From a virus, in the IMG/VR virus record IMGVR_UViG_3300009080_000001, positions 20,759 through 84,758 of that record: a DNA stretch of 64,000 bases; one strand, given 5' to 3'. The translations under genes and the position numbers were made by a program. Positions 6,434-34,567 of the stretch are shown here, piece after piece. The notes below the pieces were generated by a model. That model worked only from the letters and a program-made list of their open reading frames with translations. It was not told the DNA's origin and made no database searches. Positions within the stretch are counted from its first letter, which is position 1. Every line of letters starts with the position of its first letter.

Positions 6434-6889
6434 ATGAAATATAACAGCATGAAAAAACAAGCATTTAAAGATTGGAAACGAGGTACTAAAACTCCGCAAT
6501 GGGCAAAGATAAATAAAAGGAAAAGAATATATGAACCAGAATATTACACAACCCTGAATAATTTACAGGGTACGTTGAATTTCCTTGACCATAAGTTTGA
6601 TAAATGTAATTTAGAGAATCTTGGTAATTATATTTATGAGATAAAAGATATTATAAAACCTAGACATATAGATAAAGAAGATTATTCAATGCAATATCAG
6701 ATATATAATAGTGGTATATGGAATGTTTTTAGTAGTTACTATAAGGACAAGACAGGTTACGGAGTACACTGGAAATTAGAGGAAGTTAACTATTCAAGAT
6801 TAGCTGAGAAAATGTATAAGATAACAGAGAAAAATAAGTTAAAATGTTTAGGAGGAGTAAGGTGGTTAGTGTGGGTAAAAATTACATAG
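6434..6889 (+). CDS. hypothetical protein with divergent C-terminal TRLARK module
   Basis: VNYSRLAEKMYK...GVRWLVWV; ATG 6434 after GGAG. Confidence 0.65.
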   Translation: MKYNSMKKQAFKDWKRGTKTPQWAKINKRKRIYEPEYYTTLNNLQGTLNFLDHKFDKCNLENLGNYIYEIKDIIKPRHIDKEDYSMQYQIYNSGIWNVFSSYYKDKTGYGVHWKLEEVNYSRLAEKMYKITEKNKLKCLGGVRWLVWVKIT

Positions 6890-6933
6890 TGGTTGACAAA
6901 TGATTTGCGTTATACTGTTACCTGTGTTATTAT
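6874..6933 (+). promoter_or_regulatory. sigma70-type promoter with GTAAAAATTACA box
   Basis: TTGCGT 6905-6910, 17 nt, TGn-TATTAT 6928-6933; extra TTGACA at 6893. Confidence 0.65.
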
Positions 6934-6970
6934 TAATTGTACTTAAGTTATCGTATGGAGGATAAATAAA

Positions 6971-8218
6971 ATGAGTGAAGAAAAGAAACAACCAACAGCA
7001 TTAGAAGTAGCACAAGGTAGAACTAGAATCGAGTTATTACTTACGAAGTTATATAACCACCCGACAGATAGATTCTATGCACATTTATTCTTCCATGTAG
7101 ATAGAAGAGTAGATAACGCAACGTGTCCAACAATGGGAGTTGGCATGAAAGGCGGAAGGATTCAGATGGTATATAATACTGAGTTCATTAAGCAATATAG
7201 TGACGAGGTTATTACTGAGATTCTTAAGCATGAATGTATGCACCTTATTAACGATCATATTAGTAGAGGTAGAGGTGCTAAAGAGAAGAATATGACTAAG
7301 CACAAGATGGAAAATATTGCCCAAGATTGTGCTATTAATCAATCGTTAAATGGTGCAATTATCAAGGAAATTGGTGGTGTAGATTTAGATAGCTTTAGGA
7401 AGCTCTTAACGCATCAACCAGAGGACTTTATACTTGAGGCAGGTATGACCTCAGATTATTATTATAAGCTCTTAGAACAGGAAAAGCAGGATCGTGAGGA
7501 TGCAGGAGAAGGCGACCAAGAGCAAGGTGAAGGATCACTAGGTCAACAGCTAGGTGACTTAGAAATGGACGATCATGGTCAATTTGGAGAAATGGACGCA
7601 TTAGATCAAGCTATGTTAGACGAAAAGATTAAGCAAGCTGCTGAGGACGCTAGAGCTAGTGGAGCAGGAAACCTACCAAGTGAAGTAGAGGAAATGTTAA
7701 AGCTTAGAAAGAAACCTAAAGAGAATTGGAAGAGGTTACTTAGACAATTTATTGGTGGTGGTGTTAGGTCTGATAAAAAGAAAACAAGAAGTAAACGTAA
7801 TAGACGTTACGGGATTAAGTTTTCAGGAAACAAAAAGGACTATGTTGCAAGGATATTAGTAGTACTAGATACATCAGGAAGTATGTACGGTGATAGAACT
7901 GACAAGGTACTGAATGAAATTTACGGTATCTGGAAAGCTAACCCATCAACTAAGCTCGACATTGTTGAGTGTGATGCTCAGATCCAAGACGTATTTGAGT
8001 ACGATGGTAAGGACAAATTTGCCATTACAGGGCGTGGAGGAACTAACATGACTCCTGCATTAGAGTATGCTGATAAACACAAGTACGACGGTGTTATAAT
8101 GCTTACAGACGGTGAATTTTGGGAGACTTTCAAGAATCATAAGACTCCTAGTTTATGGGTAATTGCAGGTAATCCAAGTTATACGTCGCCAATTGGTAAG
8201 ACGGTACATTTAAAGTAG
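6971..8218 (+). CDS. metallopeptidase-like + VWA domain protein (DUF2201-type), likely partner of the AAA+ ATPase
   Basis: HECMH (HExxH), NIAQDCAIN, MIDAS DTSGSM, GRGGT, LTDGE. Confidence 0.85.
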   Translation: MSEEKKQPTALEVAQGRTRIELLLTKLYNHPTDRFYAHLFFHVDRRVDNATCPTMGVGMKGGRIQMVYNTEFIKQYSDEVITEILKHECMHLINDHISRGRGAKEKNMTKHKMENIAQDCAINQSLNGAIIKEIGGVDLDSFRKLLTHQPEDFILEAGMTSDYYYKLLEQEKQDREDAGEGDQEQGEGSLGQQLGDLEMDDHGQFGEMDALDQAMLDEKIKQAAEDARASGAGNLPSEVEEMLKLRKKPKENWKRLLRQFIGGGVRSDKKKTRSKRNRRYGIKFSGNKKDYVARILVVLDTSGSMYGDRTDKVLNEIYGIWKANPSTKLDIVECDAQIQDVFEYDGKDKFAITGRGGTNMTPALEYADKHKYDGVIMLTDGEFWETFKNHKTPSLWVIAGNPSYTSPIGKTVHLK

Positions 8219-8227
8219 GAGGTAATT

Positions 8228-8563
8228 ATGGACGATATTAAAGTAGGAGATTATTTTAAAGACAGTAGTGGGTGTTATTTTGAAATAGCAGGGTATTTCA
8301 AAGATAGCGAGGATAAAAATATATACGTAATAAAGTTAGATGATTATATTGAAGGGGTTCCTTTAAAAAGACTTATTTCAGACTACGGATTTAAAAAACA
8401 AATTAATGCTCTTAATTTAGACGATAAATATAGCTATCATTATATGCCAAAACAATCAGATTGGACATTAGCATATGACAAAGTTAAAGATACAAGACTA
8501 GCAAGGAAAATGTGTAAGAAAATATACAAAGAAGAGGACGGTTGGTTATATGTCAAAATTTAA
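8228..8563 (+). CDS. TRLARK-module protein
   Basis: IKVGDYF start; C-terminal VKDTRLARKMCKKIYKEEDGWLYV. Confidence 0.75.
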   Translation: MDDIKVGDYFKDSSGCYFEIAGYFKDSEDKNIYVIKLDDYIEGVPLKRLISDYGFKKQINALNLDDKYSYHYMPKQSDWTLAYDKVKDTRLARKMCKKIYKEEDGWLYVKI

Positions 8564-8849
8564 AGTTGGTGATGTAGTTACTTTACGAAAAGATAGTAAA
8601 TATTACAAACATAACGATTTGTATGCTCATATATGTGATAAAGGATCTGGTACTATACTCGAAATCTATGACGATTATACCACACACATTTATGGGATAA
8701 AATGGAATAGTATGCCAGAAGGTGAACATGGGTATACTGACTGTTCGTTAAGAGAAGTTGATATAGAAATAAAATATAAATATACAAGACTAGCAGAGAA
8801 AGTCTACCCAAAAGGATATAAAGATGGTAAATGGTGGGTGTTATGTTAA
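8550..8849 (+). CDS. TRLARK-module protein (YTRLAEK subtype)
   Basis: KFKVGDVV start; YKYTRLAEKVYPKGYKDGKWWVL. Confidence 0.75.
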   Translation: MSKFKVGDVVTLRKDSKYYKHNDLYAHICDKGSGTILEIYDDYTTHIYGIKWNSMPEGEHGYTDCSLREVDIEIKYKYTRLAEKVYPKGYKDGKWWVLC

Positions 8850-9118
8850 AAGTTGAGGATTTAAGAGTTGGTGATATATTAGTAAACTCCTCTATTAAAT
8901 ATAGGATAGAAAGTATATCTGAAAAAGGATTTGTGCTATATTCGTATAGATATTCAGCTAGTCTTGAAAATGAGATATCTGTAAGTCATATGGGAAGGAC
9001 TATGAGAAACGGACACACTATATTACTATTTACAATAGTAAATAACACTAAACTAGCCCGTAAACTATACCCAAAAGCAGAGGTACTTGAAAACGGTAAA
9101 TTAAGGATTAGAGGATGA
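8843..9118 (+). CDS. TRLARK-module protein
   Basis: LRVGDIL; VNNTKLARKLYPKAEVLENGKLRI. Confidence 0.75.
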   Translation: MLKVEDLRVGDILVNSSIKYRIESISEKGFVLYSYRYSASLENEISVSHMGRTMRNGHTILLFTIVNNTKLARKLYPKAEVLENGKLRIRG

Positions 9119-9602: not shown

Positions 9603-9720
9603 GGGAGAATGTGTCACAAAAAGAAAAGATAAAGTTTGCTATCTGGTTACACAACAAGTTAATTGATAGGTACCCAGAGATATTTAAAAACATGAAAAAA
9701 CAATATGAAAAGGAGAAAAA

Positions 9721-9930
9721 ATGAAGCAGATATTACTAGTACTAATGATGATAGGATTTACAGCGTGTTCAGGATTACCTGTAAAGCGTGGTGGTAGTAC
9801 CTCTATAGACCGCACAGAGCGTTGTGTGTTAAGGTTGGTAGAGAATAATGGGATTAGTGCGTCAGAGGCAGAGAAGGTATGTTCTAGGATATTTAGACGT
9901 AATTATGATACAATTGGGATTAAGAGGTAA
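9721..9930 (+). CDS. putative lipoprotein
   Basis: signal peptide with lipobox-like FTAC. Confidence 0.6.
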   Translation: MKQILLVLMMIGFTACSGLPVKRGGSTSIDRTERCVLRLVENNGISASEAEKVCSRIFRRNYDTIGIKR

Positions 9931-10172
9931 TGTTAAAAGTCGGAGATTATGTTTCTATTAAACAGGGTAAAAATCTAAAAGGCGATAAAGTTGGTGTATT
10001 TAGAAAAGTTACTGAATATATTGGTAAGTATGATTTATATAAAATAGAAGGTACTGAAGGTTATCCTTATTTTGAAGACGAGTTAGACGTTTATACTAGA
10101 GTTAAGAATACAAGACTTGCAAGGAAAATGTATCCAAAAGCAGTTGAAGAAAATGGTTGGTTGTATATATGA
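9930..10172 (+). CDS. TRLARK-module protein
   Basis: LKVGDYV; VKNTRLARKMYPKAVEENGWLYI. Confidence 0.8.
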   Translation: MLKVGDYVSIKQGKNLKGDKVGVFRKVTEYIGKYDLYKIEGTEGYPYFEDELDVYTRVKNTRLARKMYPKAVEENGWLYI

Positions 10173-10612
10173 AGTACTATAAACTACAAAACTATATGAA
10201 ACAAGCTGAGGTAATAGCTAAGAACTCTCCAGATACACAGAAACAAGTAGGAGCAGTACTAGTTAAGATAGATGGCGGAGAAGTTATAGCACAAGGTTAT
10301 AACGGATACGTAAGGAATACTATGACAGCATTGCCTACGACTAGACCAAAGAAGTATGAGTACATGATACATGCGGAAGAGAACGTGATATTAAACTGTG
10401 CTAGAAATGGCATTAGTACTAAAGACTGTTATTTAGTTTGCACTTTAAGTCCATGTAAATCATGTATGAGGAGAATGAAGCAAGCAGGAATTTCAACTAT
10501 TTACTTTAAAGAGAAGTACAAAGACTTCGAAGATCAGCTAACTATGAAAGATTTACAAATAGAGTTGACGCAGGTGAAGGATTACTATAGAATAAAGTTG
10601 GAGGTTAAATGA
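10169..10612 (+). CDS. dCMP deaminase
   Basis: QVGAVLV, GYNG, HAEEN, SPCKSC zinc deaminase motifs. Confidence 0.9.
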   Translation: MKYYKLQNYMKQAEVIAKNSPDTQKQVGAVLVKIDGGEVIAQGYNGYVRNTMTALPTTRPKKYEYMIHAEENVILNCARNGISTKDCYLVCTLSPCKSCMRRMKQAGISTIYFKEKYKDFEDQLTMKDLQIELTQVKDYYRIKLEVK

Positions 10613-10905
10613 AATTTAAAGTTGGTGATAAGGTTAAGTTTAAAGACAAACCGTATTTATTTAAAATACTAATGGAAGATACTTATGGATTTTTACTAGA
10701 GGATCTTGATGTTTCACCAGATTGTTGGAAGTTATCGAATAGTTCTGTATGGACACATGAACATAGTATAAAAGCAGGAACTATGATATATAATGAGTAC
10801 GGACAATCCAGTGATCTAGAACTAGCAAAATACAAATATACAAGATTAGCAGAGAAGTTATTCCCGAAAGGACATAAAGAAGGTGATTGGTGGATATTAG
10901 ATTAA
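10609..10905 (+). CDS. TRLARK-module protein (YTRLAEK subtype)
   Basis: KFKVGDKV; YKYTRLAEKLFPKGHKEGDWWIL. Confidence 0.8.
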   Translation: MKFKVGDKVKFKDKPYLFKILMEDTYGFLLEDLDVSPDCWKLSNSSVWTHEHSIKAGTMIYNEYGQSSDLELAKYKYTRLAEKLFPKGHKEGDWWILD

Positions 10906-10996: not shown

Positions 10997-11341
10997 TTGG
11001 AGAATAGTGTGGAAGAAGTAAGTAGATTTAAAGTTGGTGATATTGTTATTGGTAACGAGGATAATCACTACGGTATTACGAATAGAGAGAATATATGTAA
11101 GGTTGTTGGGTTTATTTCAGAAAATGAATATCCTCCGATAAATACACAAGGTACGGTTGAAGTCGGCGACGATATGTACGTTGAAGTTATTGAATCTAAA
11201 GATTTCGAATATGATGTTGGAAAAATATTTCCAGTAGATTCTAGTAGGTTCAAACATTGTAGAGTAGTTAACACAAGGTTAGCAAAGAAGTTATATCCAA
11301 AAGCTAATGAGTCAGAAGATGGGAAGTGGTTATATGTCTAA
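10997..11341 (+). CDS. TRLARK-module protein
   Basis: RFKVGDIV; VVNTRLAKKLYPKANESEDGKWLYV. Confidence 0.8.
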   Translation: MENSVEEVSRFKVGDIVIGNEDNHYGITNRENICKVVGFISENEYPPINTQGTVEVGDDMYVEVIESKDFEYDVGKIFPVDSSRFKHCRVVNTRLAKKLYPKANESEDGKWLYV

Positions 11342-11699
11342 GTTTAAAGTTGGTGATATCGTTACTAGACATGGTTGGGTGTTAGAAATAGCATGTGTTT
11401 CAAATTGGGAAGATGCTAAATCTGATGCTAAAGATTGGTATGTAGCTAGAATTTTAAGTGGTAATGCTAGTTTAGGAAATGTTATTGCTGAAGAATTTGA
11501 AGGGTACTTTAGAGATAATATCAATATTGAAAGTATAATGGAATCGTTGAATAAATATCCTGTTGGTGTTAAATTCAATTGGGGATTTGAACATTCTTTT
11601 GAATCAGTAGAGCCAATTAAAAAAACAAGATTAGCATTGAAAGTGATACCAAAAGAAGATATATTAAAAGAAACTGAGGAATGGTTATGGGTAAAATAA
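11334..11699 (+). CDS. TRLARK-module protein
   Basis: KFKVGDIV; IKKTRLALKVIPKEDILKETEEWLWV. Confidence 0.75.
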   Translation: MSKFKVGDIVTRHGWVLEIACVSNWEDAKSDAKDWYVARILSGNASLGNVIAEEFEGYFRDNINIESIMESLNKYPVGVKFNWGFEHSFESVEPIKKTRLALKVIPKEDILKETEEWLWVK

Positions 11700-12700
11700 A
11701 ACTAAGTAATACTAAACGTGGAAAGTACCATGAATGTCCAGCTAGGTATAACTTCCATTATAATTATAAGTACAGAACTAAAGTATATGGTAGCCCGCTT
11801 TTCTTTGGAGTAGCAGTAGATGAGGCTTTAAACAGAATGTTACTGGATAAGAAAAAGAATCATAATAAGCTTGAGAAAGAGTTGATGGAATTAACTTCAG
11901 TTGAAACATTCATTAAGTACATGACTGATGTTGAATATAACAAGCAGAATGTCTATATACCGACGTTTAAAGACTGTGCATACAGTAAGGCAGACTATGA
12001 TGCTACGATGCTCTCAGAGGAAGATTTGGAGGTCATAGGGCATGATTTAGATTACTGTTCAGCTCATGTTGAATGGTATCACGCTGAGAAGAAGAAAAAG
12101 ACTCCAGAAATATCAGAAGCAGATACACTTAGCTTTAACCTGATGAACTGGTACAGCCTTAGAAAAAAAGGACTGATGATTCTTGAGTTATATGAGAAGG
12201 ATATTATGCCTCAAATTCATGAGGTATTTAGTATACAAGAGAGAGTTAACTTACCTAATGGATCAGGTGACTCTATAGATGGTGTTATTGACTTCGTAGC
12301 AAGCTTTGTAGATGATCCTAGTGCTAAGTATGTAGTTGACAATAAGACTGCAAGTAAAGCTTATAAGGCTAAGGATTTGGACGAATCAGATCAATTACAT
12401 TTATATGCTTATTATAAGGAAATTGAGAATATTGCGTATATTGTTTGTGAGAAGAATATTAGGAAAAGAGATCCGAGAGTTAGGATTAATATATTGAAAG
12501 GTAGTACATGTGAAGACTTTACAGAGAATCTACTTGACGATTATGAGGAAGTACTGTATAACATTAGAGAGGAGAAGTTCAATCCAGATTTAAAAGGTGG
12601 TTGTATTTTCTGGGGCAAAAAATGCGAGTACTATAGTTTATGTCATTATGATAAGTTTGATGATAATATATTGGTTGATTTAAAGAAGGTTAAGAAATGA
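11687..12700 (+). CDS. PD-(D/E)XK (Cas4/RecB-like) exonuclease
   Basis: ECPARY, GVIDFV, VVDNKT, QLHLY and C-terminal C..W..KCEY...C. Confidence 0.85.
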   Translation: MGKIKLSNTKRGKYHECPARYNFHYNYKYRTKVYGSPLFFGVAVDEALNRMLLDKKKNHNKLEKELMELTSVETFIKYMTDVEYNKQNVYIPTFKDCAYSKADYDATMLSEEDLEVIGHDLDYCSAHVEWYHAEKKKKTPEISEADTLSFNLMNWYSLRKKGLMILELYEKDIMPQIHEVFSIQERVNLPNGSGDSIDGVIDFVASFVDDPSAKYVVDNKTASKAYKAKDLDESDQLHLYAYYKEIENIAYIVCEKNIRKRDPRVRINILKGSTCEDFTENLLDDYEEVLYNIREEKFNPDLKGGCIFWGKKCEYYSLCHYDKFDDNILVDLKKVKK

Positions 12701-12999
12701 GTAGAGTTTCAGACATTAGTGCGATAACTGAAGGATGTAAAATTAAATGGAAAGGTAAACCCTTTACTGATTTGATCTACACAATAGAGAAGGTTAATCA
12801 TAAAACTGGAATTGTTTTTATAAGTTGGATAAGTGAAAGAGGTTATGACTTTGTTGATAAATACAATCTAAAGGACGCAATAGAAAGCGGTCCTATATAT
12901 TTAGTAACAATAGACGTAAAAGATACAAGATTAGCAAGAAAGTTATACCCAAATGCAGAAGTATTAGATAACGGAATGTTACGGATAAAGGAGAAATAA
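12697..12999 (+). CDS. TRLARK-module protein
   Basis: VKDTRLARKLYPNAEVLDNGMLRI. Confidence 0.8.
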   Translation: MSRVSDISAITEGCKIKWKGKPFTDLIYTIEKVNHKTGIVFISWISERGYDFVDKYNLKDAIESGPIYLVTIDVKDTRLARKLYPNAEVLDNGMLRIKEK

Positions 13000-13855: not shown

Positions 13856-14356
13856 ATGAGTAAAGAATTAACAAAGAAACTAGCAAAGATTCAGAGTACA
13901 TTACATGCACCAAAGAATCAACGCAATAGTTTTGGAAACTACAACTACCGAAGCTGTGAGGATATCTTAGAGGCTGTTAAACCGCTTCTGGGAGACTTAA
14001 CACTAGTAATTGATGATGAGATACTACCTGCTTTAGATAGGGTTTATATCAAGGCTACAGCGACGATTTCAGATGGTGAGCATAATATATCAGTATCATC
14101 ATATGCTAGAGAGTCAGACTCTAAGAAAGGTATGGATTCAGCACAGTTAACAGGAGCTACAAGTTCATATGCTAGGAAGTACGCACTTAACGGATTGTTC
14201 TTGATTGACGATAATAAAGATGCAGATACTGATGAAGCTAAAGGTGGCAAGAAAGCTGCACCAAAGAAACCAGTAGCAGCAAGTTCAAGTAAAGATAGTT
14301 TTAGAAGACCAAAAAAGAAACAAGAGCCAACACAGGAGGCATTTGATGACATCTAG
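13856..14356 (+). CDS. erf: ERF-family ssDNA-annealing recombinase
   Basis: APKNQRNSFGNYNYRSCEDI and QLTGATSSYARKYALNGLF.I.D..DAD signature. Confidence 0.9.
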   Translation: MSKELTKKLAKIQSTLHAPKNQRNSFGNYNYRSCEDILEAVKPLLGDLTLVIDDEILPALDRVYIKATATISDGEHNISVSSYARESDSKKGMDSAQLTGATSSYARKYALNGLFLIDDNKDADTDEAKGGKKAAPKKPVAASSSKDSFRRPKKKQEPTQEAFDDI

Positions 14357-15946: not shown

Positions 15947-16201
15947 ATGAAAAAGTATATGTATGTTGGATATGAATACGAAGGTGACTGGGCAACAAAA
16001 GAGTCGGCGTTTGGAGGTGTCTATTACGGAGAGCCTTGGCACGATAAGTTAAATCTATTTTATTATCCTAGCGGAGAGTACTTTGTAACAGTTGAATTAA
16101 ACGAGGTTGTTGAAGAAACTAAACCAACGAGATTAGCAAGAAAGATGTTTCCAAATGCTATTAATCATTTTGGTAGTATGTTTATATTGGAGGGTAGGTG
16201 A
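15947..16201 (+). CDS. TRLARK-module protein
   Basis: TKPTRLARKMFPNAINHFGSMFIL. Confidence 0.75.
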   Translation: MKKYMYVGYEYEGDWATKESAFGGVYYGEPWHDKLNLFYYPSGEYFVTVELNEVVEETKPTRLARKMFPNAINHFGSMFILEGR

Positions 16202-16692
16202 TAAAACTTTACACACAATTTGGAGAATTAATAGTTTGTAATAAAGCTGAGTTTTTAGGAATGGTTCCACATGAGACTGTTGGTCCGAAAGTTGACTTAC
16301 CATATATTACAGGACTTAATGAAGAAATTGGAAGTTTCAATATGATTAATAAAAAATTAGATATTAATAGTAATTTACAGTTCTTTTCTAATAAACATTT
16401 TCCGAAAAAGAGAATGATGGACGTTGTTATGGAACTTGGAACTAATTATATGTTCCCAGAAACATTACATTGTGTTATTGTAGGTAAGAATTTCTATTTA
16501 TATAGTGATCCAGTAGTATATGAGTTTGCAGGAAAATATCAGGTTATTTCTAAAAAATACCAAGACGTTTATAGTTGCAGTATTGAACATTCTGGGATTA
16601 TGGATAAGATACAGAGATTTAAAGCTACTAGATTAGCAAAAAAGATGTTTCCAGATGTTTTAGAAGTTGACGGGTGGTTGTATTCATGTTAG
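16198..16692 (+). CDS. TRLARK-module protein
   Basis: FKATRLAKKMFPDVLEVDGWLYSC. Confidence 0.75.
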   Translation: MIKLYTQFGELIVCNKAEFLGMVPHETVGPKVDLPYITGLNEEIGSFNMINKKLDINSNLQFFSNKHFPKKRMMDVVMELGTNYMFPETLHCVIVGKNFYLYSDPVVYEFAGKYQVISKKYQDVYSCSIEHSGIMDKIQRFKATRLAKKMFPDVLEVDGWLYSC

Positions 16693-17168: not shown

Positions 17169-17176
17169 GAGGAAAA

Positions 17177-24428: not shown

Positions 24429-24792
24429 ACTAATAAAGACATTACTGCTTCTAGCAGCTCTTGTATACGCTTCTAACGGCATTGGATGCGATTACCCTAC
24501 ACAAGTATCAGCTAATGATACAGTGGCTTGTGAGGGCGTTATATTGACGAATAAGCAGTTTGTAGATACAAGTAATAACAAGAAAGAGTTACGTTTAAAA
24601 GACCTTAAAATAGCTAAATTAGAAGGTACTGTAGAATTAATGGATATTAGACATTCAGTATATAGAAAAGAGTTAGATAAAACTAGGGATGCTTTGTCAG
24701 ATTTAGAGATCAAGAGTACTATTGGTTACGTTATAAGCTTCAGTTTTGGAGCTGTATTAACTGGTTATATTGCTAAGGAAGTTTTGAAGTGA
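24421..24792 (+). CDS. exported protein with coiled coil and C-terminal TM (spanin-like topology)
   Basis: N-terminal signal, possibly lipobox GIGC; C-terminal hydrophobic helix. Confidence 0.5.
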   Translation: MIKLIKTLLLLAALVYASNGIGCDYPTQVSANDTVACEGVILTNKQFVDTSNNKKELRLKDLKIAKLEGTVELMDIRHSVYRKELDKTRDALSDLEIKSTIGYVISFSFGAVLTGYIAKEVLK

Positions 24793-25091
24793 AGAAAGCG
24801 ATGTGGATAAGTTATTCGTCCGATGAACATGAACCTAATTTTCCTTTTAATATTAATGATGTAATTAATGTTGAAGAGGATTTTGAAGCAGGATGGGCTA
24901 ATGGTCTATGGGAGATTCTTGACGATGAAGGATTTAGTATTAGCTACGAGTATTCCGGAGAACTTCTAAACCAGTGTTACTTATATAAAGAACAATTACT
25001 TTTCGGAGTAAAATCAACACGACTAGCAAAGAAACTATATCCAAATGCTCCAGAAAAAGAGGGTATGTTATGGATCAAAGACGATGAGTAA
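24789..25091 (+). CDS. TRLARK-module protein
   Basis: VKSTRLAKKLYPNAPEKEGMLWI. Confidence 0.8.
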   Translation: MKKAMWISYSSDEHEPNFPFNINDVINVEEDFEAGWANGLWEILDDEGFSISYEYSGELLNQCYLYKEQLLFGVKSTRLAKKLYPNAPEKEGMLWIKDDE

Positions 25092-25395
25092 ACCAGTATA
25101 TTTCAAACTAGGTTCAACTGGTAAGATTTACCAAGCAGATATCTGTAGAGATTACACAGTTGGCGTAGATTGGTCAGCTATGATCCAAGTAGTAGAATTT
25201 GACGACATATCTCAAGTACATCAAGACATATTTTCACATACATATTTCAACAGAAATTACGCTAATGTTCGAGCAAGTTTATATCTTATATTAAAAGGTG
25301 ACTTACTGTACGAATCTATCAAAGATACTAGATTAGCACGTAAGATGTATCCAGATGCTATCGAACATGAAGGTTGGTTGTTAATTGAAAGTTAG
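25084..25395 (+). CDS. TRLARK-module protein
   Basis: IKDTRLARKMYPDAIEHEGWLLI. Confidence 0.8.
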   Translation: MSKPVYFKLGSTGKIYQADICRDYTVGVDWSAMIQVVEFDDISQVHQDIFSHTYFNRNYANVRASLYLILKGDLLYESIKDTRLARKMYPDAIEHEGWLLIES

Positions 25396-25606: not shown

Positions 25607-26587
25607 ATGAGTAAGAAACTGAAACAGATTAAACAAAGATTCGTAGATACTATGAATCAAGTAGGAGAGGTACTAGATGTATGCCCTACTGAACTTAGGA
25701 GAGACGACTATGTTAGAATCTCAGTTGATACTGATATAGAAGATAGACTTAATAAGGAAGAATTAAACCTTATTGGTGGATTTAAAAGTGCTAAGAAGTC
25801 GTTTATTAAAGGCAAGAAAGCAGGTCCAAAGATTCTATTATTTGACTTAGAGACTACGCCTATTGAAGCATATGTTTGGGGTCTATGGGATCAAAATATT
25901 GGCTTAAGTATGGTTAAAGAAGAATCATCACTATTATCTTGGTCAGCTAAATGGCTTGGAGATGATAAAGTCATGTATGACGATGTTTCCGGTCAAAAGA
26001 ACTTAAGAGACGATAAAAGGATAGTACAATCATTACTTAAATTAGTAGATGAAGCTGATATTATCGTTGGTCATAATTCTGACTCATTTGACGTTAAAGT
26101 TATGAACGCTAGAGTTATTAAGAACGGCTTAAAGCCACCAAGTTCATATAAACGTATGGATACTAAAAAGATGGCTAAGAAACACTTCAGATTCCTTTCT
26201 AACAAGCTTCAGTACTTAACTGATTCATTATGTACGGAATTTAAGAAGTCGTCACATGGTAAGTTTCCGGGCTTCTCAATGTGGAAAGAATGTCTTAAAG
26301 GAAACAAAGAAGCATTCCAAGAGATGAAAGAATATAACATTCTAGATGTAACTTCATTAGAGGAATTATTTGTACAAATGTTGCCTTGGGAATCAGCTAG
26401 AATATTCAATACCTACAAAGATAACGATTCATGTACTTGTGGACATAATAAGTTCAAAAAGAGTGGGTTTGCTTATACTCCTAGCGCAAAGTATCAAAAA
26501 TACAAATGTAAGAAATGTGGAGCAGAATCTAGAGGTACTGAGAATCTTAATCTTAGAAAATCAACTAAGAAAAATACGGTTAGGTAA
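25607..26587 (+). CDS. RNase H-like (YprB/DnaQ-type) 3'-5' exonuclease with C-terminal Zn ribbon
   Basis: LLFDLET, VGHNSDSFD, MDT, YNILDV; CTCG...CKKCG. Confidence 0.85.
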   Translation: MSKKLKQIKQRFVDTMNQVGEVLDVCPTELRRDDYVRISVDTDIEDRLNKEELNLIGGFKSAKKSFIKGKKAGPKILLFDLETTPIEAYVWGLWDQNIGLSMVKEESSLLSWSAKWLGDDKVMYDDVSGQKNLRDDKRIVQSLLKLVDEADIIVGHNSDSFDVKVMNARVIKNGLKPPSSYKRMDTKKMAKKHFRFLSNKLQYLTDSLCTEFKKSSHGKFPGFSMWKECLKGNKEAFQEMKEYNILDVTSLEELFVQMLPWESARIFNTYKDNDSCTCGHNKFKKSGFAYTPSAKYQKYKCKKCGAESRGTENLNLRKSTKKNTVR

Positions 26588-26871
26588 TGTCAGGTATAGA
26601 TCACCTATACGCTAGAATTAAGAATAGGCTCGTTGAATTTGACTTCGAGCCTACTTCAAAAAGAGCAGATGGTATATTCTATACTATAATGTGGGAATTT
26701 TCATATTCAATGAATAATATTTCTAACGATGTTATTGACAGCTATATAAAAGATGTATATAATTTTGACAGGTATAGAAATACCAGACTAGCACAAAAGA
26801 TGTTTAAAAACGATATTATTAAGAAAACAGATAAATGGATATATGTGAGAGATTATGGTAACAAAAAATAG
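26587..26871 (+). CDS. TRLARK-module protein
   Basis: YRNTRLAQKMFKNDIIKKTDKWIYV. Confidence 0.7.
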   Translation: MSGIDHLYARIKNRLVEFDFEPTSKRADGIFYTIMWEFSYSMNNISNDVIDSYIKDVYNFDRYRNTRLAQKMFKNDIIKKTDKWIYVRDYGNKK

Positions 26872-27079
26872 GAAGATGTTTAATGCTTTGAAGGATGCTG
26901 GATATTCTGACAAAGATATTGGTAGTTTTTGTGAGGCTTATTTAGAACTAGTAGCAGAGGCTATGATTGACGGTTTAGTTAGAGAAACTAAAGGTATTAA
27001 TGAAACTGAGTTAGCAGAGAAGATACTTAAAGATAAGTTGATATATAAACGTAACGGTAAGTTATATGTGGAGAAATAG
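26855..27079 (+). CDS. hypothetical protein
   Basis: coupled ORF. Confidence 0.5.
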   Translation: MVTKNRKMFNALKDAGYSDKDIGSFCEAYLELVAEAMIDGLVRETKGINETELAEKILKDKLIYKRNGKLYVEK

Positions 27080-27354
27080 TGCAAGAAATATTTGAATTTA
27101 ACGGTTGGATTGGAAGTATATTGCTCGCAATTTGTGCAGTACCTTTAGCATGGAGATCGTTAAGAGATAAACATAGTAATGGAGTTGATGGATTATTTCT
27201 GATAATCTGGGGATTAGGCGAGATACTTACGTTAACATATGTACTATATAAATGGGATTTACCGTTAATATTAAACTATGGGTTGAATCTAGTGTTTATT
27301 GGCATTGTTGTTTATTATAAGCTAAAGCCGGAGGTTGTTAATGAAAAGAAGTGA
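27079..27354 (+). CDS. PQ-loop/SemiSWEET-like three-helix membrane protein
   Basis: GWIGSILLAICAVPLAWRS..K...GV; PLILNY. Confidence 0.7.
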   Translation: MQEIFEFNGWIGSILLAICAVPLAWRSLRDKHSNGVDGLFLIIWGLGEILTLTYVLYKWDLPLILNYGLNLVFIGIVVYYKLKPEVVNEKK

Positions 27355-27553
27355 TATGTTATTGTCTATACGGGACGATATCTATACTTACAGTAATTGT
27401 CCCGAAGAAGAAATAGATAAATTAGCCAACATTATACTTAAAAATATCGAGGATTATGGGATGAAACCTCCCGGAAGATGGTCCTCAGTACTAAGAGGGA
27501 ATACTGCTAAAAGAGAGATAGCGAGATGTTCGTGGGAGGATGAAGATGAGTAA
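27335..27553 (+). CDS. hypothetical protein
   Basis: MKRSDML...IEDYGMKPP...WEDE. Confidence 0.55.
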   Translation: MLMKRSDMLLSIRDDIYTYSNCPEEEIDKLANIILKNIEDYGMKPPGRWSSVLRGNTAKREIARCSWEDEDE

Positions 27554-28112
27554 AGATACTTTTAAAGAAAACTTGGAAATGTTCCACTCTAGTAATATAC
27601 ATATACCTTCAAGAAGTATATTATTATCTGGAGAAATTACAGTAGAAAAAAGAGATGAGTTTCTAAAGAATATATTAACACTTGATGAAAAGGGTCACGA
27701 TATTATAGTATACCTATCTAGTGAAGGTGGTTACACAGATCAAGGTAAGTCGATATATGACTTGATTAAAACTAGAGATTCTAATATAAAAGGTATAGTA
27801 CTAGATGAAGCTAGTTCAAGTGCAAGTTTTATACTCCAAGCTTGTGACGAAAGGATTATGTTTCCAAATAGTTACTTAATGGTACATATTGGAGAAGAGG
27901 CTACAGGTGGACATCCTAACACTAAGAAAGCTTGGGATAAGAAGTATGAAGAAGATACAAAGATAATGGAAGATATGTATTTAAAGAGGATTAAAGAAAA
28001 AAAACCAAGATATACAAGAAAACAGTTGCAAAACATGTTAACTTTTGATACTATCTTGAATCCTAAGAAAGCAATTGAGCTTGGATTAGCAGATAAGGTA
28101 TATGGTGATTAA
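27540..28112 (+). CDS. clpP: ClpP-like serine protease
   Basis: YLSSEGG, EASSSASFIL (Ser), NSYLMVH (His), FDTILNPKKAIELGLADKV. Confidence 0.85.
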   Translation: MKMSKDTFKENLEMFHSSNIHIPSRSILLSGEITVEKRDEFLKNILTLDEKGHDIIVYLSSEGGYTDQGKSIYDLIKTRDSNIKGIVLDEASSSASFILQACDERIMFPNSYLMVHIGEEATGGHPNTKKAWDKKYEEDTKIMEDMYLKRIKEKKPRYTRKQLQNMLTFDTILNPKKAIELGLADKVYGD

Positions 28113-28353
28113 TATTAATATAGGAGACAATTTTTATGGTAAATACGGTAGAATACTCATAACGAATATAGTACATAGAGGTTGTGAAACGATTATAACA
28201 TACAAGTACGATGATGGTGATGATGTACAAGGAAGATGTTTTCTACCTAGATTCCAAAATATGTTTAAAAGACAAGTAAAAAATACAAGATTAGCAAAGA
28301 AGATGTTCCCAAATGCTGAGGAATCTGAAGATGGAGAATGGTTATATGTATAA
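28102..28353 (+). CDS. TRLARK-module protein
   Basis: INIGDNF; VKNTRLAKKMFPNAEESEDGEWLYV. Confidence 0.8.
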   Translation: MVININIGDNFYGKYGRILITNIVHRGCETIITYKYDDGDDVQGRCFLPRFQNMFKRQVKNTRLAKKMFPNAEESEDGEWLYV

Positions 28354-28750
28354 AGAAAATGAGAAACTAAGATTACTTGGAAATATCGGAAAAGAAGGCG
28401 ATAAAGGATTCGTTCCAAAAGGAACAGAAGTTACTTTCGTAAAGGCTATTGACCAAGGATTAGCATCATTTGTAGTAGTACAACTAGATGATAGGATATT
28501 CACAATCAAAGAGATAGCAGTAGAGCCTCTTGAGACGAACACATTAGCTGTTTTAAAGGACTTTAACCGTGAACTTATAGCTGAGAACCCTGAATTAGCT
28601 AAGTACCACCACAACGTATTTATGAGACTATTTCACCGTATTAAGGATTTCTTTAAAAACTTATTGACAAGGAAACCTAAAGAGATTAAGATAGAGGAAG
28701 ATCTTAGTGGTCTTAAAGATTTAATCAATGATGGAGGAGAAATTGAGTAA
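28346..28750 (+). CDS. hypothetical protein
   Basis: ATG supplied by the end of the upstream module. Confidence 0.6.
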   Translation: MYKENEKLRLLGNIGKEGDKGFVPKGTEVTFVKAIDQGLASFVVVQLDDRIFTIKEIAVEPLETNTLAVLKDFNRELIAENPELAKYHHNVFMRLFHRIKDFFKNLLTRKPKEIKIEEDLSGLKDLINDGGEIE

Positions 28751-29066
28751 GTTAATATTAGGAGGAAGGTATGTCTTTAATGTAAAAAAGCGTTGCACTT
28801 TAGTTGGTTTTGATGATGATGGTGATATTTTAGTACTTTTCGATGACGTTAACTATAATACTCCTTTTGGTACTACAACATATAGCGAGTCTGTAGGTAG
28901 CTGGGATAATCTTATTGAATTTAAAGGAGATGCGGTTGGGTATTCAGAATGTCCATTAATGTTAGAACCGTTAGAAATTAAAGTAAATGACACAAGATTA
29001 GCACGTAAATTATATCCAAATGCTAGATTACAAGCAGACGGTATGTTATTAATAGAGGTGAAATAA
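28728..29066 (+). CDS. TRLARK-module protein
   Basis: VNDTRLARKLYPNARLQADGMLLI. Confidence 0.8.
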   Translation: MMEEKLSKLILGGRYVFNVKKRCTLVGFDDDGDILVLFDDVNYNTPFGTTTYSESVGSWDNLIEFKGDAVGYSECPLMLEPLEIKVNDTRLARKLYPNARLQADGMLLIEVK

Positions 29067-29287
29067 TGGATATTTTATTGTATTTATTTTTAGGAGTAGT
29101 ATTATTTGCTGTTGGTAGTGTAATTATTATGTTTAGGTCAATAAACAAAGTTGTTTATTTCTTTAAATGTAATCCAAATGGTTTACCAAGTAAATTACCA
29201 GAAGAAGTGCAAGAGTTTAAAGATCATGTCGGAGAAGAACAGTTCCAAGAATTATACGATAAATTTCAAAAGGAAAACAATGAGTAA
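29066..29287 (+). CDS. single-TM membrane protein
   Basis: N-terminal hydrophobic helix. Confidence 0.55.
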   Translation: MDILLYLFLGVVLFAVGSVIIMFRSINKVVYFFKCNPNGLPSKLPEEVQEFKDHVGEEQFQELYDKFQKENNE

Positions 29288-29960
29288 ATATAAATGTAAA
29301 TACGGACTATATCACGATAAACCAGTAGTACAGAATCAGCCTAGTAGTAATAATGGTTGGATTTATACTGCATATTCTAAGTATTTAGCTCCCGGAAATA
29401 TAGACTCAACTAGAGTTAGATTAACATTTCAAAGCTGTAGAAAGAGTTATACTCCTTTAATTATAAATAGACTACCTAATAAGCCAAAACCTCCGCTTTC
29501 TAAAGATGAGGTTATTGGACAAGTATCTCTAGGTTTACTACATAATGAGGAACTTGAAAGAAGTCACTATAATTTCTGTAATATTGATAAGAGTTTTGAC
29601 AGGAAGTTATCATTTAAAAGTCTGATAAAAGCTATCAAAGTACTATATAAAGCTAAAGATGAACATAGAAATTACATCTGGGAAAATGAGGTTGTGGAAG
29701 CTTATCCATTAGCATTCAGATTACCACCTGAAGACATTTATTACGTTAAAGAGTATAGTGGTGTGAGAGCCTCTATTTTCGAGTCTGTAGCGTTCTATTT
29801 AAACGCAGCCATGACTATACATAATGGAGATAAAAGCTCCAGAATGCTGTTATTCCTTAAATTAGAGGATATGAATCATTGGTTGAAGAGGTTTGTTGAT
29901 AAAGATAAATGGGTTAGAGATTATTTCGAAGAGAATCACGATTTTGTGAAGAATCTGTGA
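29280..29960 (+). CDS. hypothetical protein
   Basis: ATG 29280 after AAGGA; long ORF. Confidence 0.65.
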   Translation: MSKYKCKYGLYHDKPVVQNQPSSNNGWIYTAYSKYLAPGNIDSTRVRLTFQSCRKSYTPLIINRLPNKPKPPLSKDEVIGQVSLGLLHNEELERSHYNFCNIDKSFDRKLSFKSLIKAIKVLYKAKDEHRNYIWENEVVEAYPLAFRLPPEDIYYVKEYSGVRASIFESVAFYLNAAMTIHNGDKSSRMLLFLKLEDMNHWLKRFVDKDKWVRDYFEENHDFVKNL

Positions 29961-30295
29961 AAGGTTATATAAAGATAAAAGTACCAATGTATCGACAGAA
30001 AGGACTAGTTCCTGATATGTGGACATGTACTTATTATGAGAAATTCCCGTACATTTATATGTCAGAAGACTTAACTCACTATTTAAGTAAATGGTTAGAA
30101 ATTAAAGGTGTTAGATGTTCAGTAGGTGGTATGGTACATAGAGGATTTAGAACTCACTATATTATAGATAGAGATAAGATGATAACTAGAGTACGTGATA
30201 CTAGATTAGCTAGGAAGGTATTAAAAGAGGACGAGATACTTAAAATTAAAGATGGTTGGATATATATGTTTAATGAGGAGGTTAGACTTGGCTAA
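29957..30295 (+). CDS. TRLARK-module protein
   Basis: VRDTRLARKVLKEDEILKIKDGWIYM. Confidence 0.75.
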   Translation: MKGYIKIKVPMYRQKGLVPDMWTCTYYEKFPYIYMSEDLTHYLSKWLEIKGVRCSVGGMVHRGFRTHYIIDRDKMITRVRDTRLARKVLKEDEILKIKDGWIYMFNEEVRLG

Positions 30296-30680
30296 GAAAC
30301 TAGATAAAGGTAAACCTAGAATGGATTTAATTAATCCAAGGTTTTTAGAGGAATTAGGAGAAGGATTAGGTTTCGGAGCTAGTAAGTACTCTGATTATAA
30401 TTACAGAGAAGGTGAAGGTCTGGATAGATCGAGACTGTATGCATCGGCAATGAGACATCTCTTAAAATATGCTAAAGGTGAAAAAATAGATGAAGAAAGT
30501 GACATTTCGCACTTGACCGCAGTAGCAATTAATTGTATGATGATTTATACCCTTGAAGAAGAAAACAAGGGGACTGAGTATGACGCTTGGGTTATGGAGG
30601 AAACTGATGACACAAAAGAAAATCCCTCAAAAGAAGGATCTCAAAGACGAAAGGTTAAACAAGTTACAAAGAAGAGTTAA
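30288..30680 (+). CDS. dATP/dGTP diphosphohydrolase-like protein (DUF5664-type)
   Basis: KLDKGKPRMDLI...FGASKY..YNYR...SAMRHL...GEKIDEES..SHL. Confidence 0.8.
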   Translation: MAKKLDKGKPRMDLINPRFLEELGEGLGFGASKYSDYNYREGEGLDRSRLYASAMRHLLKYAKGEKIDEESDISHLTAVAINCMMIYTLEEENKGTEYDAWVMEETDDTKENPSKEGSQRRKVKQVTKKS

Positions 30681-32034: not shown

Positions 32035-32264
32035 TGGATACTACGTTATTAATATATTGTGTTATATCATTCATAGGTACAGTGTTGCACGGTTTTTATA
32101 CTGAATATTTTAAATATGATAAAGCAACTTTAACTATTTTAGAAATTATACAGATATTTGTTTGTGGTTTTATGGGGCCTGTAATTTTTCCGATTATGTT
32201 ATTTTTTTGGATAATAAATAGGGACTTTTGGAATAAAGAAGTATTCAAAAAAGGTGAAGAATGA
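32034..32264 (+). CDS. two-TM membrane protein
   Basis: hydrophobic helices. Confidence 0.55.
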   Translation: MDTTLLIYCVISFIGTVLHGFYTEYFKYDKATLTILEIIQIFVCGFMGPVIFPIMLFFWIINRDFWNKEVFKKGEE

Positions 32265-32485
32265 TCGGTTGGAAAAACGTAAAAGATACAAGATTAGCTA
32301 GAAAGATGTTCCCTGACTTTAAAGAGTCCGAAAAAGACGGGTATATTATGATCCCAGAACCTATAGATTTAACTAATACTACGTTTGCTGAAAGAGCACA
32401 TATAGCTGAACAATTGTTACAATACGGACTTATTACTACAAAAGAAGAATATTTAAAAATAATTGATAATATCCAACAAAAGTAG
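32261..32485 (+). CDS. protein with N-terminal TRLARK module
   Basis: MIGWKNVKDTRLARKMFPDFKESEKDGYIMIP followed by a helical domain. Confidence 0.75.
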   Translation: MIGWKNVKDTRLARKMFPDFKESEKDGYIMIPEPIDLTNTTFAERAHIAEQLLQYGLITTKEEYLKIIDNIQQK

Positions 32486-32514
32486 TTGACAGGGTTTTCT
32501 AAATAGATTATATT
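32486..32514 (+). promoter_or_regulatory. sigma70-type promoter
   Basis: TTGACA 32486-32491, 17 nt, TATATT 32509-32514. Confidence 0.75.
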
Positions 32515-32541
32515 TAAGACTAATCTATTAAAGGAGAATTA

Positions 32542-33306
32542 ATGAAGAAACTACTTTTAGCAATTATGCTACTACCAACACTGGCATTCGCCAATCTAAA
32601 CACAATCAAACTTACTGATAAAAACACTATCAGTTTCAACGAACAATTCAATGCAATGACTGTTGCAGCAAAACAAGCACAATTATTCGAATTAGCATCT
32701 AGTTCACAAGAAAAGGACTTATATATAGTTATGTATACTCCCGGTGGCTCAGTATCTGCTGGAGCTTTATTTATCGATACAGCAAGAGCATTAGGTAAGA
32801 ACATTCACACAATCACTATTTTCAGCGCATCTATGGGCTACCACACCGTTCAAGGACTTGGCAAGAGGTATATTCTACCATCTGGGGTTCTAATGTCTCA
32901 CAGAGCTTATGTAAGCGGATTACAGGGTCAATTTCCGGGTGAACTAAATCAAAGAGTTGAGATGCTTATGAAGTCTACTGAAGACCTTGATAAGATTGCT
33001 GCTGCTAGAGTTGGTTTAAGTCTTAAGGAATACAAATCTACTATTCACGATGAACTATGGTTAACTGGTGCTGATGCTGTTAAAAGAGGTCATGCTGATG
33101 AAGTTGTACAAGCTATCTGTGGAGAAAGTCTAAGTGGATTATACGAGAAAGTATTTAACACATTCTTTGGACCAGTTATTGTTGAATTTGCTAATTGTCC
33201 ATTAATTGTAGGACCAGTTAATATCAAAGGATCAAACGAAGCAATTATGGAAGTTAAAAAGAACATCCTAGACGATGTAACTAAAAAGGTTAAAACACTA
33301 CTATAA
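32542..33306 (+). CDS. ClpP-like protease with N-terminal signal peptide
   Basis: MKKLLLAIMLLPTLAFA; YTPGGSV, FSASMG, LMSH, ELWLTGADAVKRGHADEV. Confidence 0.8.
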   Translation: MKKLLLAIMLLPTLAFANLNTIKLTDKNTISFNEQFNAMTVAAKQAQLFELASSSQEKDLYIVMYTPGGSVSAGALFIDTARALGKNIHTITIFSASMGYHTVQGLGKRYILPSGVLMSHRAYVSGLQGQFPGELNQRVEMLMKSTEDLDKIAAARVGLSLKEYKSTIHDELWLTGADAVKRGHADEVVQAICGESLSGLYEKVFNTFFGPVIVEFANCPLIVGPVNIKGSNEAIMEVKKNILDDVTKKVKTLL

Positions 33307-33737
33307 TGGCTGATTTAGACGAATTACTAGAATTATTAGAAAAGAAAGTACAGGAGAAGGAGGCTGAAAAGTCTCCTAAACCTGAACAAAAAGAGTCCAC
33401 TAGAAGGTTCATAGAGAAATCTAATATCCGAAAAGGACTAGACAGAGTACCAAATTATGTTATATTCTTTACATACATGAAGAAGTACCGAGCAAGAGTT
33501 GGAGAAGAGAAATGGTCAAAAGTACATTTCTTTAGGTTATTTAACAGACAATTCGATCAAGCTAGAGTTGGTAAACAAAGATACTACGTACTAGATGGAA
33601 GCTCATTTGATCTAACAAGGGAAGGAAGAATTGAAGCGAAAGCATACGACAAAGAATACAGGCGACAAGTCGGCATCAAAACAGGCAAAATCAAGCTTAG
33701 AAAGCGACGTAAAGCCGTTAAAAACGAAGAGGGATAG
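33306..33737 (+). CDS. putative DNA-binding (winged-helix-like) protein
   Basis: basic; IFFTY..Y...WSKVHFFRLF...RYYVL pattern. Confidence 0.5.
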   Translation: MADLDELLELLEKKVQEKEAEKSPKPEQKESTRRFIEKSNIRKGLDRVPNYVIFFTYMKKYRARVGEEKWSKVHFFRLFNRQFDQARVGKQRYYVLDGSSFDLTREGRIEAKAYDKEYRRQVGIKTGKIKLRKRRKAVKNEEG

Positions 33738-34290
33738 TCACCAATACCCTAACCTTAAGAAGTCGTTAAACACGAAACTAAGGCGTGATTACTTGGATAA
33801 CCTGTACTATGTAGATGGTGTTAAAAACAAGAAAGATGGTGAAGATGTAATACGCCCTTTAAATGACTCTGAAAAAGAGTGGCTTAATAAGTTTAATGGT
33901 GAATACTACGGAGCAAGTTTTGATAAGAACGATGATAATAATCTACACAGTAATCGTGCCGATGATGTTACTATATATAATGTTAGGCAAGACATAAGTA
34001 GAATTAGAAAGGAAGCTGCGGCAGCATCTAAAGAAGATGACTCGGAATTAGCTAAAGAGCTGTATTTAGAATTAGAAGAGCAACTAGAGTACTTAAGAGA
34101 CATCTACCCGAAAAAGAAGTGTCAGGATGATAATAACTCTAGGAATAGATGTTTATTGAATACTGGTAAAGCTACTAATGAGGTTAAATTTATACCTTGG
34201 GAAACAATGGATCAAAATATCTTAGGTGATATGGATATAGAATTACTATATATTTTAAATGATATGATTGCGGAGGAAGAAGGTGAGTAA
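33631..34290 (+). CDS. hypothetical protein
   Basis: long ORF. Confidence 0.65.
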   Translation: MKRKHTTKNTGDKSASKQAKSSLESDVKPLKTKRDSHQYPNLKKSLNTKLRRDYLDNLYYVDGVKNKKDGEDVIRPLNDSEKEWLNKFNGEYYGASFDKNDDNNLHSNRADDVTIYNVRQDISRIRKEAAAASKEDDSELAKELYLELEEQLEYLRDIYPKKKCQDDNNSRNRCLLNTGKATNEVKFIPWETMDQNILGDMDIELLYILNDMIAEEEGE

Positions 34291-34567
34291 ATTTAAGGTT
34301 GGAGACAAGGTTTTGGTTGTTGGGTCTGATAGTTTAACTAGATATTACTTAAATTTTGGTTTGTTTGATAGAACAGGGTTAGTTGGAGTAGTAAAATTCG
34401 TTCGCAATCGAGAACGTAATATGTACTTAATACAGTTTAACGATGAAATAGATGGTATGAAGTTTGCAGAAAGTGAACTGGAGTTTGCAAGATATAAATA
34501 TACTAGACTTGCTGAGAAGATGTTCCCAAAAGGTCACAGAGAAGGTGATTGGTGGGTATTAGAGTAA
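34283..34567 (+). CDS. TRLARK-module protein (YTRLAEK subtype)
   Basis: SKFKVGDKV; YKYTRLAEKMFPKGHREGDWWVLE; last gene of the + arm. Confidence 0.8.
   Translation: MSKFKVGDKVLVVGSDSLTRYYLNFGLFDRTGLVGVVKFVRNRERNMYLIQFNDEIDGMKFAESELEFARYKYTRLAEKMFPKGHREGDWWVLE

Follow-up and report, generated by a model that had tools for sequence, protein, structure and literature searches.

Here we describe a short protein module with a TRLARK core that recurs on many early proteins of a phage known from metagenomes. The analysed stretch, called the window throughout, comprises 64,000 nucleotides, namely bases 20759-84758 of the 84,758-bp virus record IMGVR_UViG_3300009080_000001, a complete genome with direct terminal repeats; coordinates are those of the window unless marked as genome or residue positions. 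DNA of this phage has been found in marine metagenomes, with no RNA sequencing run among those listed. Genes for replication and early functions occupy the plus-strand arm (genome 11.7-55.3 kb), including those for an rIIA-like protein, an AAA_5 ATPase, an HNH endonuclease, a dCMP deaminase, a PD-(D/E)XK nuclease, ERF, a primase-helicase, the DNA polymerase PolA, endonuclease VII, an exonuclease and two ClpP-family proteins, and the minus-strand arm encodes capsid, portal, terminase and tail. The module is found on about one quarter of the early genes.

Module copies along the early arm

An earlier note on this DNA had listed 23 in-frame copies on the plus strand. The regular expression [TS]R[LIVM]A[RKEQ]K matches 21 times in the window, always on the plus strand and in the frame of an open reading frame (ORF), and a profile built from these matches recovers 23 of 23 copies (E 1.6e-8 to 3.7e-18), the divergent copy at 11604-11696 scoring lowest with E 5e-3. 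All of them lie at the Thr or Ser codons that the note had named, including 9047 (TKLARK) and 11625 (TRLALK). The same search of the window returns no module match on the minus strand, in other frames or in the virion arm, where the note had not seen it either, and ORF positions agree with its division into 21 C-terminal copies on small ORFs, one N-terminal copy and one internal copy. Beyond the window, a profile search of the whole genome adds five upstream copies and a sixth on an ORF absent from the initial gene call, for a total of 29 good copies and one degenerate copy.

The copies are numbered along the plus strand, with E values from the profile hidden Markov model. Copy 1 (6770-6874; E 1.8e-10), a Ser variant with a long loop, forms the C-terminus of ORF 6371-6889 (172 aa), and copy 2 (8468-8560; E 5e-17) ends ORF 8228-8563 (111 aa), which has an SH3-like N-terminus with a KVGD start. 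Further SH3-like carriers follow. Three of them bear a YKYTRLAEK subtype: copy 3 (8760-8846; E 3e-13) in ORF 8550-8849 (99 aa), copy 6 (10816-10902; E 1.5e-12) in ORF 10609-10905 (98 aa) and copy 23 (34478-34564; E 2.6e-13) in ORF 34268-34567 (99 aa), the last gene of the plus arm. The others are copy 4, the TKLARK variant (9023-9112; E 1.6e-8; ORF 8831-9118, 95 aa), copy 5 (10086-10169; E 3.7e-18; ORF 9930-10172, 80 aa), copy 7 (11249-11338; E 1.2e-14; ORF 10997-11341, 114 aa), the divergent TRLALK copy 8 (E 6e-11 with another module profile; ORF 11307-11699, 130 aa), copy 12 (16870-16962; E 9e-18; ORF 16711-16965, 84 aa), copy 13 (20048-20137; E 4.5e-16; ORF 19856-20140, 94 aa) and copy 19 (28261-28350; E 2.9e-16; ORF 28102-28353, 83 aa), which directly follows the first ClpP-like gene.

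Among the remaining small carriers are copy 9 (12901-12993; E 1.4e-14; ORF 12697-12999, 100 aa), copy 10 (16103-16192; E 1e-13; ORF 15947-16201, 84 aa), copy 11 (16603-16689; E 3.4e-14; ORF 16198-16692, 164 aa), copy 14 (20727-20819; E 3.2e-16; ORF 20550-20822, 90 aa), copy 16 (24993-25082; E 2.9e-14; ORF 24789-25091, 100 aa), copy 17 (25303-25392; E 1.7e-16; ORF 25045-25395, 116 aa), copy 18, a TRLAQK form that lacks the Pro (26758-26853; E 3.1e-14; ORF 26587-26871, 94 aa), copy 20 (28968-29060; E 6.3e-15; ORF 28728-29066, 112 aa) and copy 21 (30176-30274; E 7e-13; ORF 29957-30295, 112 aa). The degenerate copy (26984-27076), which reads TELAEK...NGKLYV, lies in ORF 26855-27079 (74 aa; E 0.014 and 0.0014). 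Copy 15 (21842-21931; E 3.3e-15) is internal to PolA, and copy 22 (32264-32359; E 6.4e-16) is N-terminal in ORF 32261-32485 (74 aa), the C-terminal half of which is portal-like.

A predicted strand-helix-strand mini-domain

Modelled alone with AlphaFold2 from 54 aligned copies, the 33-residue module is a confident strand-helix-strand unit (strand 5-9, helix 12-17, strand 28-32) with a mean predicted local distance difference test score (pLDDT) of 89.6, in line with the tiny folded domain that had been proposed for it. The model of the 84-residue carrier 16711-16965 (pLDDT 82.5 overall, above 90 in the module) recovers identical module elements, and in it the first strand of the module continues the last strand of the preceding barrel. 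The module is thus predicted to be an autonomously folding mini-domain, about 30 residues long and made up of a strand, a two-turn amphipathic helix, an acidic loop, a D/N-G turn and a second strand.

Across 197 unique copies, L11 is conserved in 100%, A12 in 99%, K14 in 98% and T9 in 95%; 96% have R or K at position 10, P17 is kept in 89% and the turn Gly in 84%. Judged from predicted secondary structure and helical periodicity, L11, A12, M15 and Y16 would form one helix face, opposite an exposed face made up of T9, R10, R/K13 and K14, and we propose that the hydrophobic face (L, A, M, Y) packs on both strands. The residue at position 13 varies together with loop charge: R or K stands ahead of acidic loops and E ahead of basic ones, and the E variants come mostly from one sub-family.

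Selection acts on the peptide

The module is conserved at the protein level. Pairwise identity among copies at codon positions 1, 2 and 3 is 0.68, 0.80 and 0.52, and pairs of copies with the same residue use the identical codon at a frequency of 0.52, against 0.44 expected from genome codon usage. For instance, the Arg codons of the module vary between AGA, CGT, AGG and CGA, and its Leu codons between TTA, CTA and CTT; RNAalifold finds zero consensus base pairs among the copies.

Between orthologs on related metagenome contigs (36 pairs), the module is on average 78% identical and the remainder of the protein 53%. The earlier note had tied a functional tag to purifying selection, and the module is indeed under it: the pooled ratio of nonsynonymous to synonymous substitution rates (dN/dS) amounts to 0.11 in the module, against 0.25 in the cargo. 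Since both values are low, purifying selection acts on both parts, more strongly on the module, and the cargos are not neutral carriers. Within the genome, paralogous modules share only 23-65% identity, whereas orthologous modules can be identical, which indicates that the copies are old and have not homogenised one another.

Distribution and absence from known families

When 1.84 billion cluster representatives were searched exhaustively with the profile, at least 196 metagenomic proteins matched the module at E <= 1e-3, nearly all of them small, and a word-seeded search for homologs returned 78. In 180 fetched homologs the module is C-terminal in 167, N-terminal in 8 and internal in 5. True copies were found only on metagenome contigs syntenic with this phage. 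A pattern scan of 185,579 prokaryote species genomes found no module copy, only partial, pattern-forced matches; one of IMG/VR gave a single chance match, and a tblastn search of 50,697 phage records with the PolA module region gave zero matches. In the record of Flavobacterium phage immuto neither the module nor a helicase homolog was found, in a search that had no positive control there. By these searches, the module is confined to one phage clade known from metagenomes.

The earlier note had not recognised the module as a named family, and none matches it in the libraries searched. Taking membership as a profile match above the curated threshold that spans the module, no family in Pfam, PHROGs, NCBIfam or PADLOC includes it (10 carriers; 34 aligned members), and the profile search against Pfam, a check proposed in the note, finds no known Pfam domain across it. 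The sole curated-family matches in carriers are weak SH3/KOW matches on the N-terminal part. Against PDB sequences the best match of the module profile has E 1.6, over a chance 10-residue stretch. Against PDB folds the best VIA Z of the module model is 3.0 (root-mean-square deviation (rmsd) 1.9, 32 aligned), and Foldseek returns nothing at E <= 0.001, both from a query whose 33 residues give fold searches little power. The ESM Atlas yielded no usable feature match, its structural rows being generic strand-helix-strand pieces. In the literature, 'TRLARK' is absent from a full-text search, and a motif-style search gave no relevant match. As far as sequence comparison reaches, the module is an undescribed domain, without a match in the curated libraries or the literature searched.

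Carriers of the module

A K-F-K-V-G-D-type motif opens 12 of the 29 carriers, which an iterative search groups into one diverged family, and every KVGD-type SH3-like protein in this genome bears the module (12/12). In the AlphaFold2 model of carrier 16711-16965, the strands of the SH3-like barrel span residues 8-11, 25-33, 36-41, 47-49 and 53-60. The barrel model superposes on uL24, the KOW domain of NusG and the Tudor domain of PcrA with VIA Z 6.3-7.5, values also within the range of unrelated small barrels, and rmsd 1.6-2.5 over 50-60 residues; this likeness concerns the cargo and not the module. Weak Pfam matches of barrel members are to SH3_12 (2e-6 in two members), KOW and MSSS. On the model, the N-terminal part of these 12 carriers is a five-stranded SH3/KOW/Tudor-like barrel. 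Module subtypes track the subtypes of the N-terminus, and related phages have comparable small SH3-like barrels without the module. The earlier note's description of unrelated upstream sequence therefore stands only in part, as it fails for the 12 carriers with a common barrel. Its interpretation of the module as a tag fares similarly: the unit is discrete, portable, predicted to fold by itself and under selection, but its cargos are not all unrelated.

Four carriers include segments that resemble the phage's own virion proteins, these being the top non-self matches within the 145-protein proteome. The family profile of ORF 32261-32485 matches residues 507-535 of the phage's own portal (E 1.4e-7), and the carrier at genome 13459-13950 matches portal residues 422-442 (E 1.7e-4). 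The family at genome 15052-15379 matches residues 271-317 of the phage's own capsid protein (E 1.6e-5), with a weak Linocin_M18 match too, and the carrier at genome 12997-13203 matches capsid residues 48-62 (E 1e-3). The portal- or capsid-like stretches in these four carriers span 15-47 residues, and such carriers may be decoys or dominant-negative pieces. A terminase fragment considered at genome 13951-14235 is unsupported, with a best non-self match of E 0.39.

Enzyme parts occur in relatives. A Pyr_excise (endonuclease V / glycosylase) protein ends in the module, with an SH3-like linker, and in a 154-aa protein the module follows a segment that covers just the initial ~55 profile positions of a class I/II aminotransferase domain (Pfam 22.3 bits, cut-off 19.7). 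By this profile match, the aminotransferase part of the metagenome protein represents a cellular-type enzyme in truncated form. The isoelectric points (pI) of carriers range from 4.4 to 9.8. Related contigs keep the core gene order, and module genes are lost, gained or swapped at the same slot. At the slot after the first ClpP-like gene (27000-30300), relatives have differing module genes, an exchange that looks like cassette-style replacement.

The module in the DNA polymerase

Copy 15 occupies residues 340-369 of PolA (ORF 20825-23197). PolA residues 253-380 are unmatched in the alignment with Klenow fragment and fall between its residues 234 and 248, after the helix that follows IERNGVKID and before NLSSTKQ. 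Its flanks match the last part of helix H on one side and the NLSSTKQ (H1) region on the other; in the helix names used for Klenow and in the T7 work cited below, this places the insertion between thumb helices H and H1. Within it, the module is a clean 25-aa (75-nt) in-frame insertion that 81 related PolAs (80 from IMG/VR and that of immuto) do not have: the region measures 40-43 residues in these relatives and 67 in this phage and one close relative. The nearest cultured PolA is that of a Flavobacterium phage; the immuto polymerase (48% identical) has most of the thumb insertion and lacks exactly the module. The PolA module is also present in three further close relatives, and a search of the 1.3 Mb surrounding the 80 IMG/VR polymerases yielded no module.

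A separate observation in the thumb insertion (21600-22100, PolA residues ~260-420) is a second copy of a 'K-x-x-x-G-x-x-S...L' thumb-tip motif, FGLDLPKSASGKYS beside VKPLTKTLKGAPQF. This points to an ancient duplication within the insertion, one that immuto and the 80 IMG/VR relatives have in common with this phage, though only as a suggestion.

The position recalls bacteriophage T7, in which the thioredoxin-binding domain (TBD) of the gp5 polymerase sits between helices H and H1 (PMC11339088); phage PolAs with other thumb-tip insertions have also been described (PMC10201439). Both polymerases are of phage family A and carry an extra segment between these two helices, and the helicase of the present phage ends in an acidic aromatic tail. 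PolA shares the H-H1 position with the TBD but not its sequence, as BLASTP of PolA against T7 gp5 aligns motif regions only. Moreover, the TBD has 76 residues and is not known from other proteins, whereas the module has 25-30 residues within a ~110-residue insertion and is found on 28 other proteins here.

Genomic neighbourhood

The two ClpP-family genes of the plus arm lie at 27540-28112 and 32542-33306. In both, the catalytic Ser and His align to solved ClpP, and the second has a C-terminal extension of ~60 residues. The pair may encode genuine Clp-type proteases, or else proteases of head maturation whose genes lie at a distance from the head genes. Upstream, at 2899-6060, a gene for an rIIA-like protein (633 aa; PHROG 612, E 1e-46) is followed by that of an AAA_5 (MoxR-type) ATPase whose C-terminal tail is long and acidic. 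In the virion arm, adjacent minus-strand genes for 700- and 500-aa proteins (60319-63950) are paralogs, 39% identical over 509 residues, and probably tail-fibre-like duplicates. No tRNA was found in the window.

Between 8500 and 34600, genes overlap by 1-47 nt, and many module genes have GGAG-like ribosome-binding sites in their last codons; this clear use of Shine-Dalgarno sequences argues against a typical Flavobacteriia-type translation signal. The ends of module genes overlap the ribosome-binding site and start of the next gene (by -1 to -47 nt). That the D-G codons of the module are kept because they serve as the start of the next gene was considered and rejected as a general rule, as the overlaps fall at differing places in the module.

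A proposed docking handle and its alternatives

The reading that we favour, tentatively and as something less than probable, is that the module acts as a portable docking handle, which would attach its carriers to the replication machinery by binding acidic tails or DNA. An exposed ridge of Arg10 and Lys14, with Arg/Lys13, would bind one common negatively charged ligand and so bring early proteins to one place: the SH3/KOW-like binders, the portal and capsid pieces and, by way of its thumb tip, PolA. In relatives, repair enzymes would be recruited likewise. The most likely place would be the replication machinery. The conserved Arg/Lys ridge, the portability of the module, its gain in the polymerase thumb and its fusion to DNA enzymes point to a negatively charged ligand, and one shared partner for all carriers is plausible.

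The candidate ligands, other than DNA, are acidic tails with aromatic ends on two proteins of the same arm: DADDDDGY (19389-19412, plus strand), the C-terminus of the primase-helicase (ORF 17493-19415), and EAFDDI (14320-14353), the C-terminus of ERF. Both tails are conserved in relatives, and they resemble the docking peptides of T7 gp4, T7 gp2.5 and bacterial SSB. In T7, the acidic tails of gp4 and gp2.5 dock on a basic patch of the TBD (bioRxiv 10.64898/2026.05.20.726333).

One element that occurs at any position on many unrelated proteins and brings them to one replication hub is also the principle of short docking peptides. These include clamp-binding motifs (QL[SD]LF, PIP box), SSB tails and T4 gp45-binding tails, in which 5-10 unstructured residues engage a folded partner. 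The module differs in being folded (as predicted), 30 residues long and of different sequence; the consensus of 197 copies contains no Gln and no QL[SD]LF, QLxLxL or PIP-box pattern, and of the genes scanned, none was recognised as encoding a clamp.

Several points weigh against the docking handle. Binding by the module, an identical partner for all copies and the identity of that partner are inferences from sequence and models. The pI range of the carriers, many of which are acidic, and the module's own acidic loop fit poorly with a simple DNA binder. The helicase of a relative without the module ends in QDDGWL, so an acidic tail occurs independently of the module, and a comparison of helicase tail and module co-occurrence lends the link no support, a helicase homolog being found in only 2 of 80 loci of PolA relatives, one of them the homolog with the QDDGWL end. 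Portal and capsid fragments have no obvious role at a replication fork. With 12 of 29 carriers in one paralog family, copy number partly reflects gene duplication and overstates independent tagging. Lastly, the covariation of position 13 with loop charge suggests that some of the conserved charges may form salt bridges within the fold instead of contacting a ligand.

The last two points lead to an alternative that we consider doubtful, though it deserves serious weight: the module would be a structural cap or folding nucleus, inherited as an SH3-like family duplicated and sometimes shuffled onto other proteins, with no common partner and with its charges engaged in internal salt bridges. The presence of the module on all 12 KVGD-type proteins, the agreement of its subtypes with those of the N-terminus, the position 13 covariation and, in the model, the extension of the last barrel strand by the first module strand all fit such a cap. 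Yet the module is predicted to fold alone, it also occurs at N-termini, inside a polymerase loop and on cargos that are not SH3-like, and small SH3-like proteins of related phages exist without it. In addition, the exposed Lys is 98% conserved and never replaced by Arg despite saturated synonymous divergence, which would be odd for a purely structural role.

A variant of docking, rather unlikely in our estimate, is a bait-and-handle family of adaptors, in which diverse binders share a constant handle that plugs them, along with the polymerase, into one phage hub. The baits would be the SH3-like barrels, the portal and capsid interface fragments and the cellular aminotransferase fragment, and the hub could lie either in the primase-helicase ring, with its six acidic tails, or in the pair of ClpP-like proteases. 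Proteins of the host or of rival phages would then be sequestered, relocated or destroyed, for example those of a defence that senses portal or capsid.

Less probable again is a turnover handle, through which the ClpP-like pair or an AAA+ ATPase, directly or by an adaptor, would remove tagged proteins and those held by their baits at a set time. The arm that bears the module also encodes two ClpP-family proteins that retain Ser and His, module genes directly adjoin both ClpP genes, an AAA_5 ATPase is encoded at 4849-6060, and the interface-like fragments of portal, capsid and aminotransferase would suit a bait joined to such a handle. Known Clp degrons, however, are short elements located at a free end, while the C-termini here vary and copies are also N-terminal or internal; the tails beyond the last strand have 0-8 residues, variable in length and sequence, and so do not resemble an ssrA-like degron. 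A degron in the thumb of a replicative polymerase is difficult to explain, and the ClpP-like genes are possibly head-maturation proteases, going by PHROG names.

It is improbable that the module associates with itself and thereby gathers all tagged proteins into a mixed assembly or condensate. The basic helix and acidic loop could pair head to tail, and strand-helix-strand half-domains are often completed by pairing, but positive evidence is absent and the monomer model is already confident. A two-copy complex prediction for the protein of ORF 16711-16965, in a single run with the 34-member alignment, scored 0.03, where the mark was 0.42, and so speaks neither for nor against self-association.

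A capsid-loading signal, by which tagged proteins would be packaged in the virion and injected into the next host, appears very unlikely. The capsid-targeting sequence of T4, an N-terminal element of ~10 residues that the head protease cleaves from internal proteins and Alt, is a precedent for shared tags on packaged cargo and resembles the module as a constant peptide on varied phage proteins; some carriers moreover hold capsid and portal pieces. In contrast to that sequence, the module is C-terminal in 167 of 180 homologs and lies in one case here inside the polymerase, it has no protease-site-like motif alongside, and all its copies are in the replication arm, with zero among the head genes.

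Finally, a selfish in-frame DNA insertion like the Rickettsia palindromic elements, or a DNA or RNA signal at gene ends with the peptide as by-product, is nearly excluded: the polymerase gene did gain a 75-nt unit in frame, and copies do sit at gene ends over the next gene's ribosome-binding site or start, but synonymous sites are near random, the third codon position is the least identical, no consensus base pairs form, dN/dS is low, and the overlapping starts fall at differing places in the module. The palindromic elements are likewise repeated units of ~25-50 residues placed in frame in many unrelated genes and in enzyme surface loops, but they are conserved as palindromic DNA, whereas the module is selected as a peptide, with randomised synonymous sites and RNA predicted to be unstructured.

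Implications

The insertion in the polymerase thumb, at the site used by the processivity factor of T7, offers a direct biochemical entry, namely the enzyme with and without the 25 residues. A self-folding unit of 30 residues might possibly also be useful as a small fusion tag. The fusions to portal, capsid and cellular-enzyme pieces hint at natural dominant-negative or decoy proteins. If the module is a docking handle, one partner would explain dozens of 'hypothetical' proteins jointly, and the phage would have a new route for gathering its takeover proteins at the replisome or at a protease.

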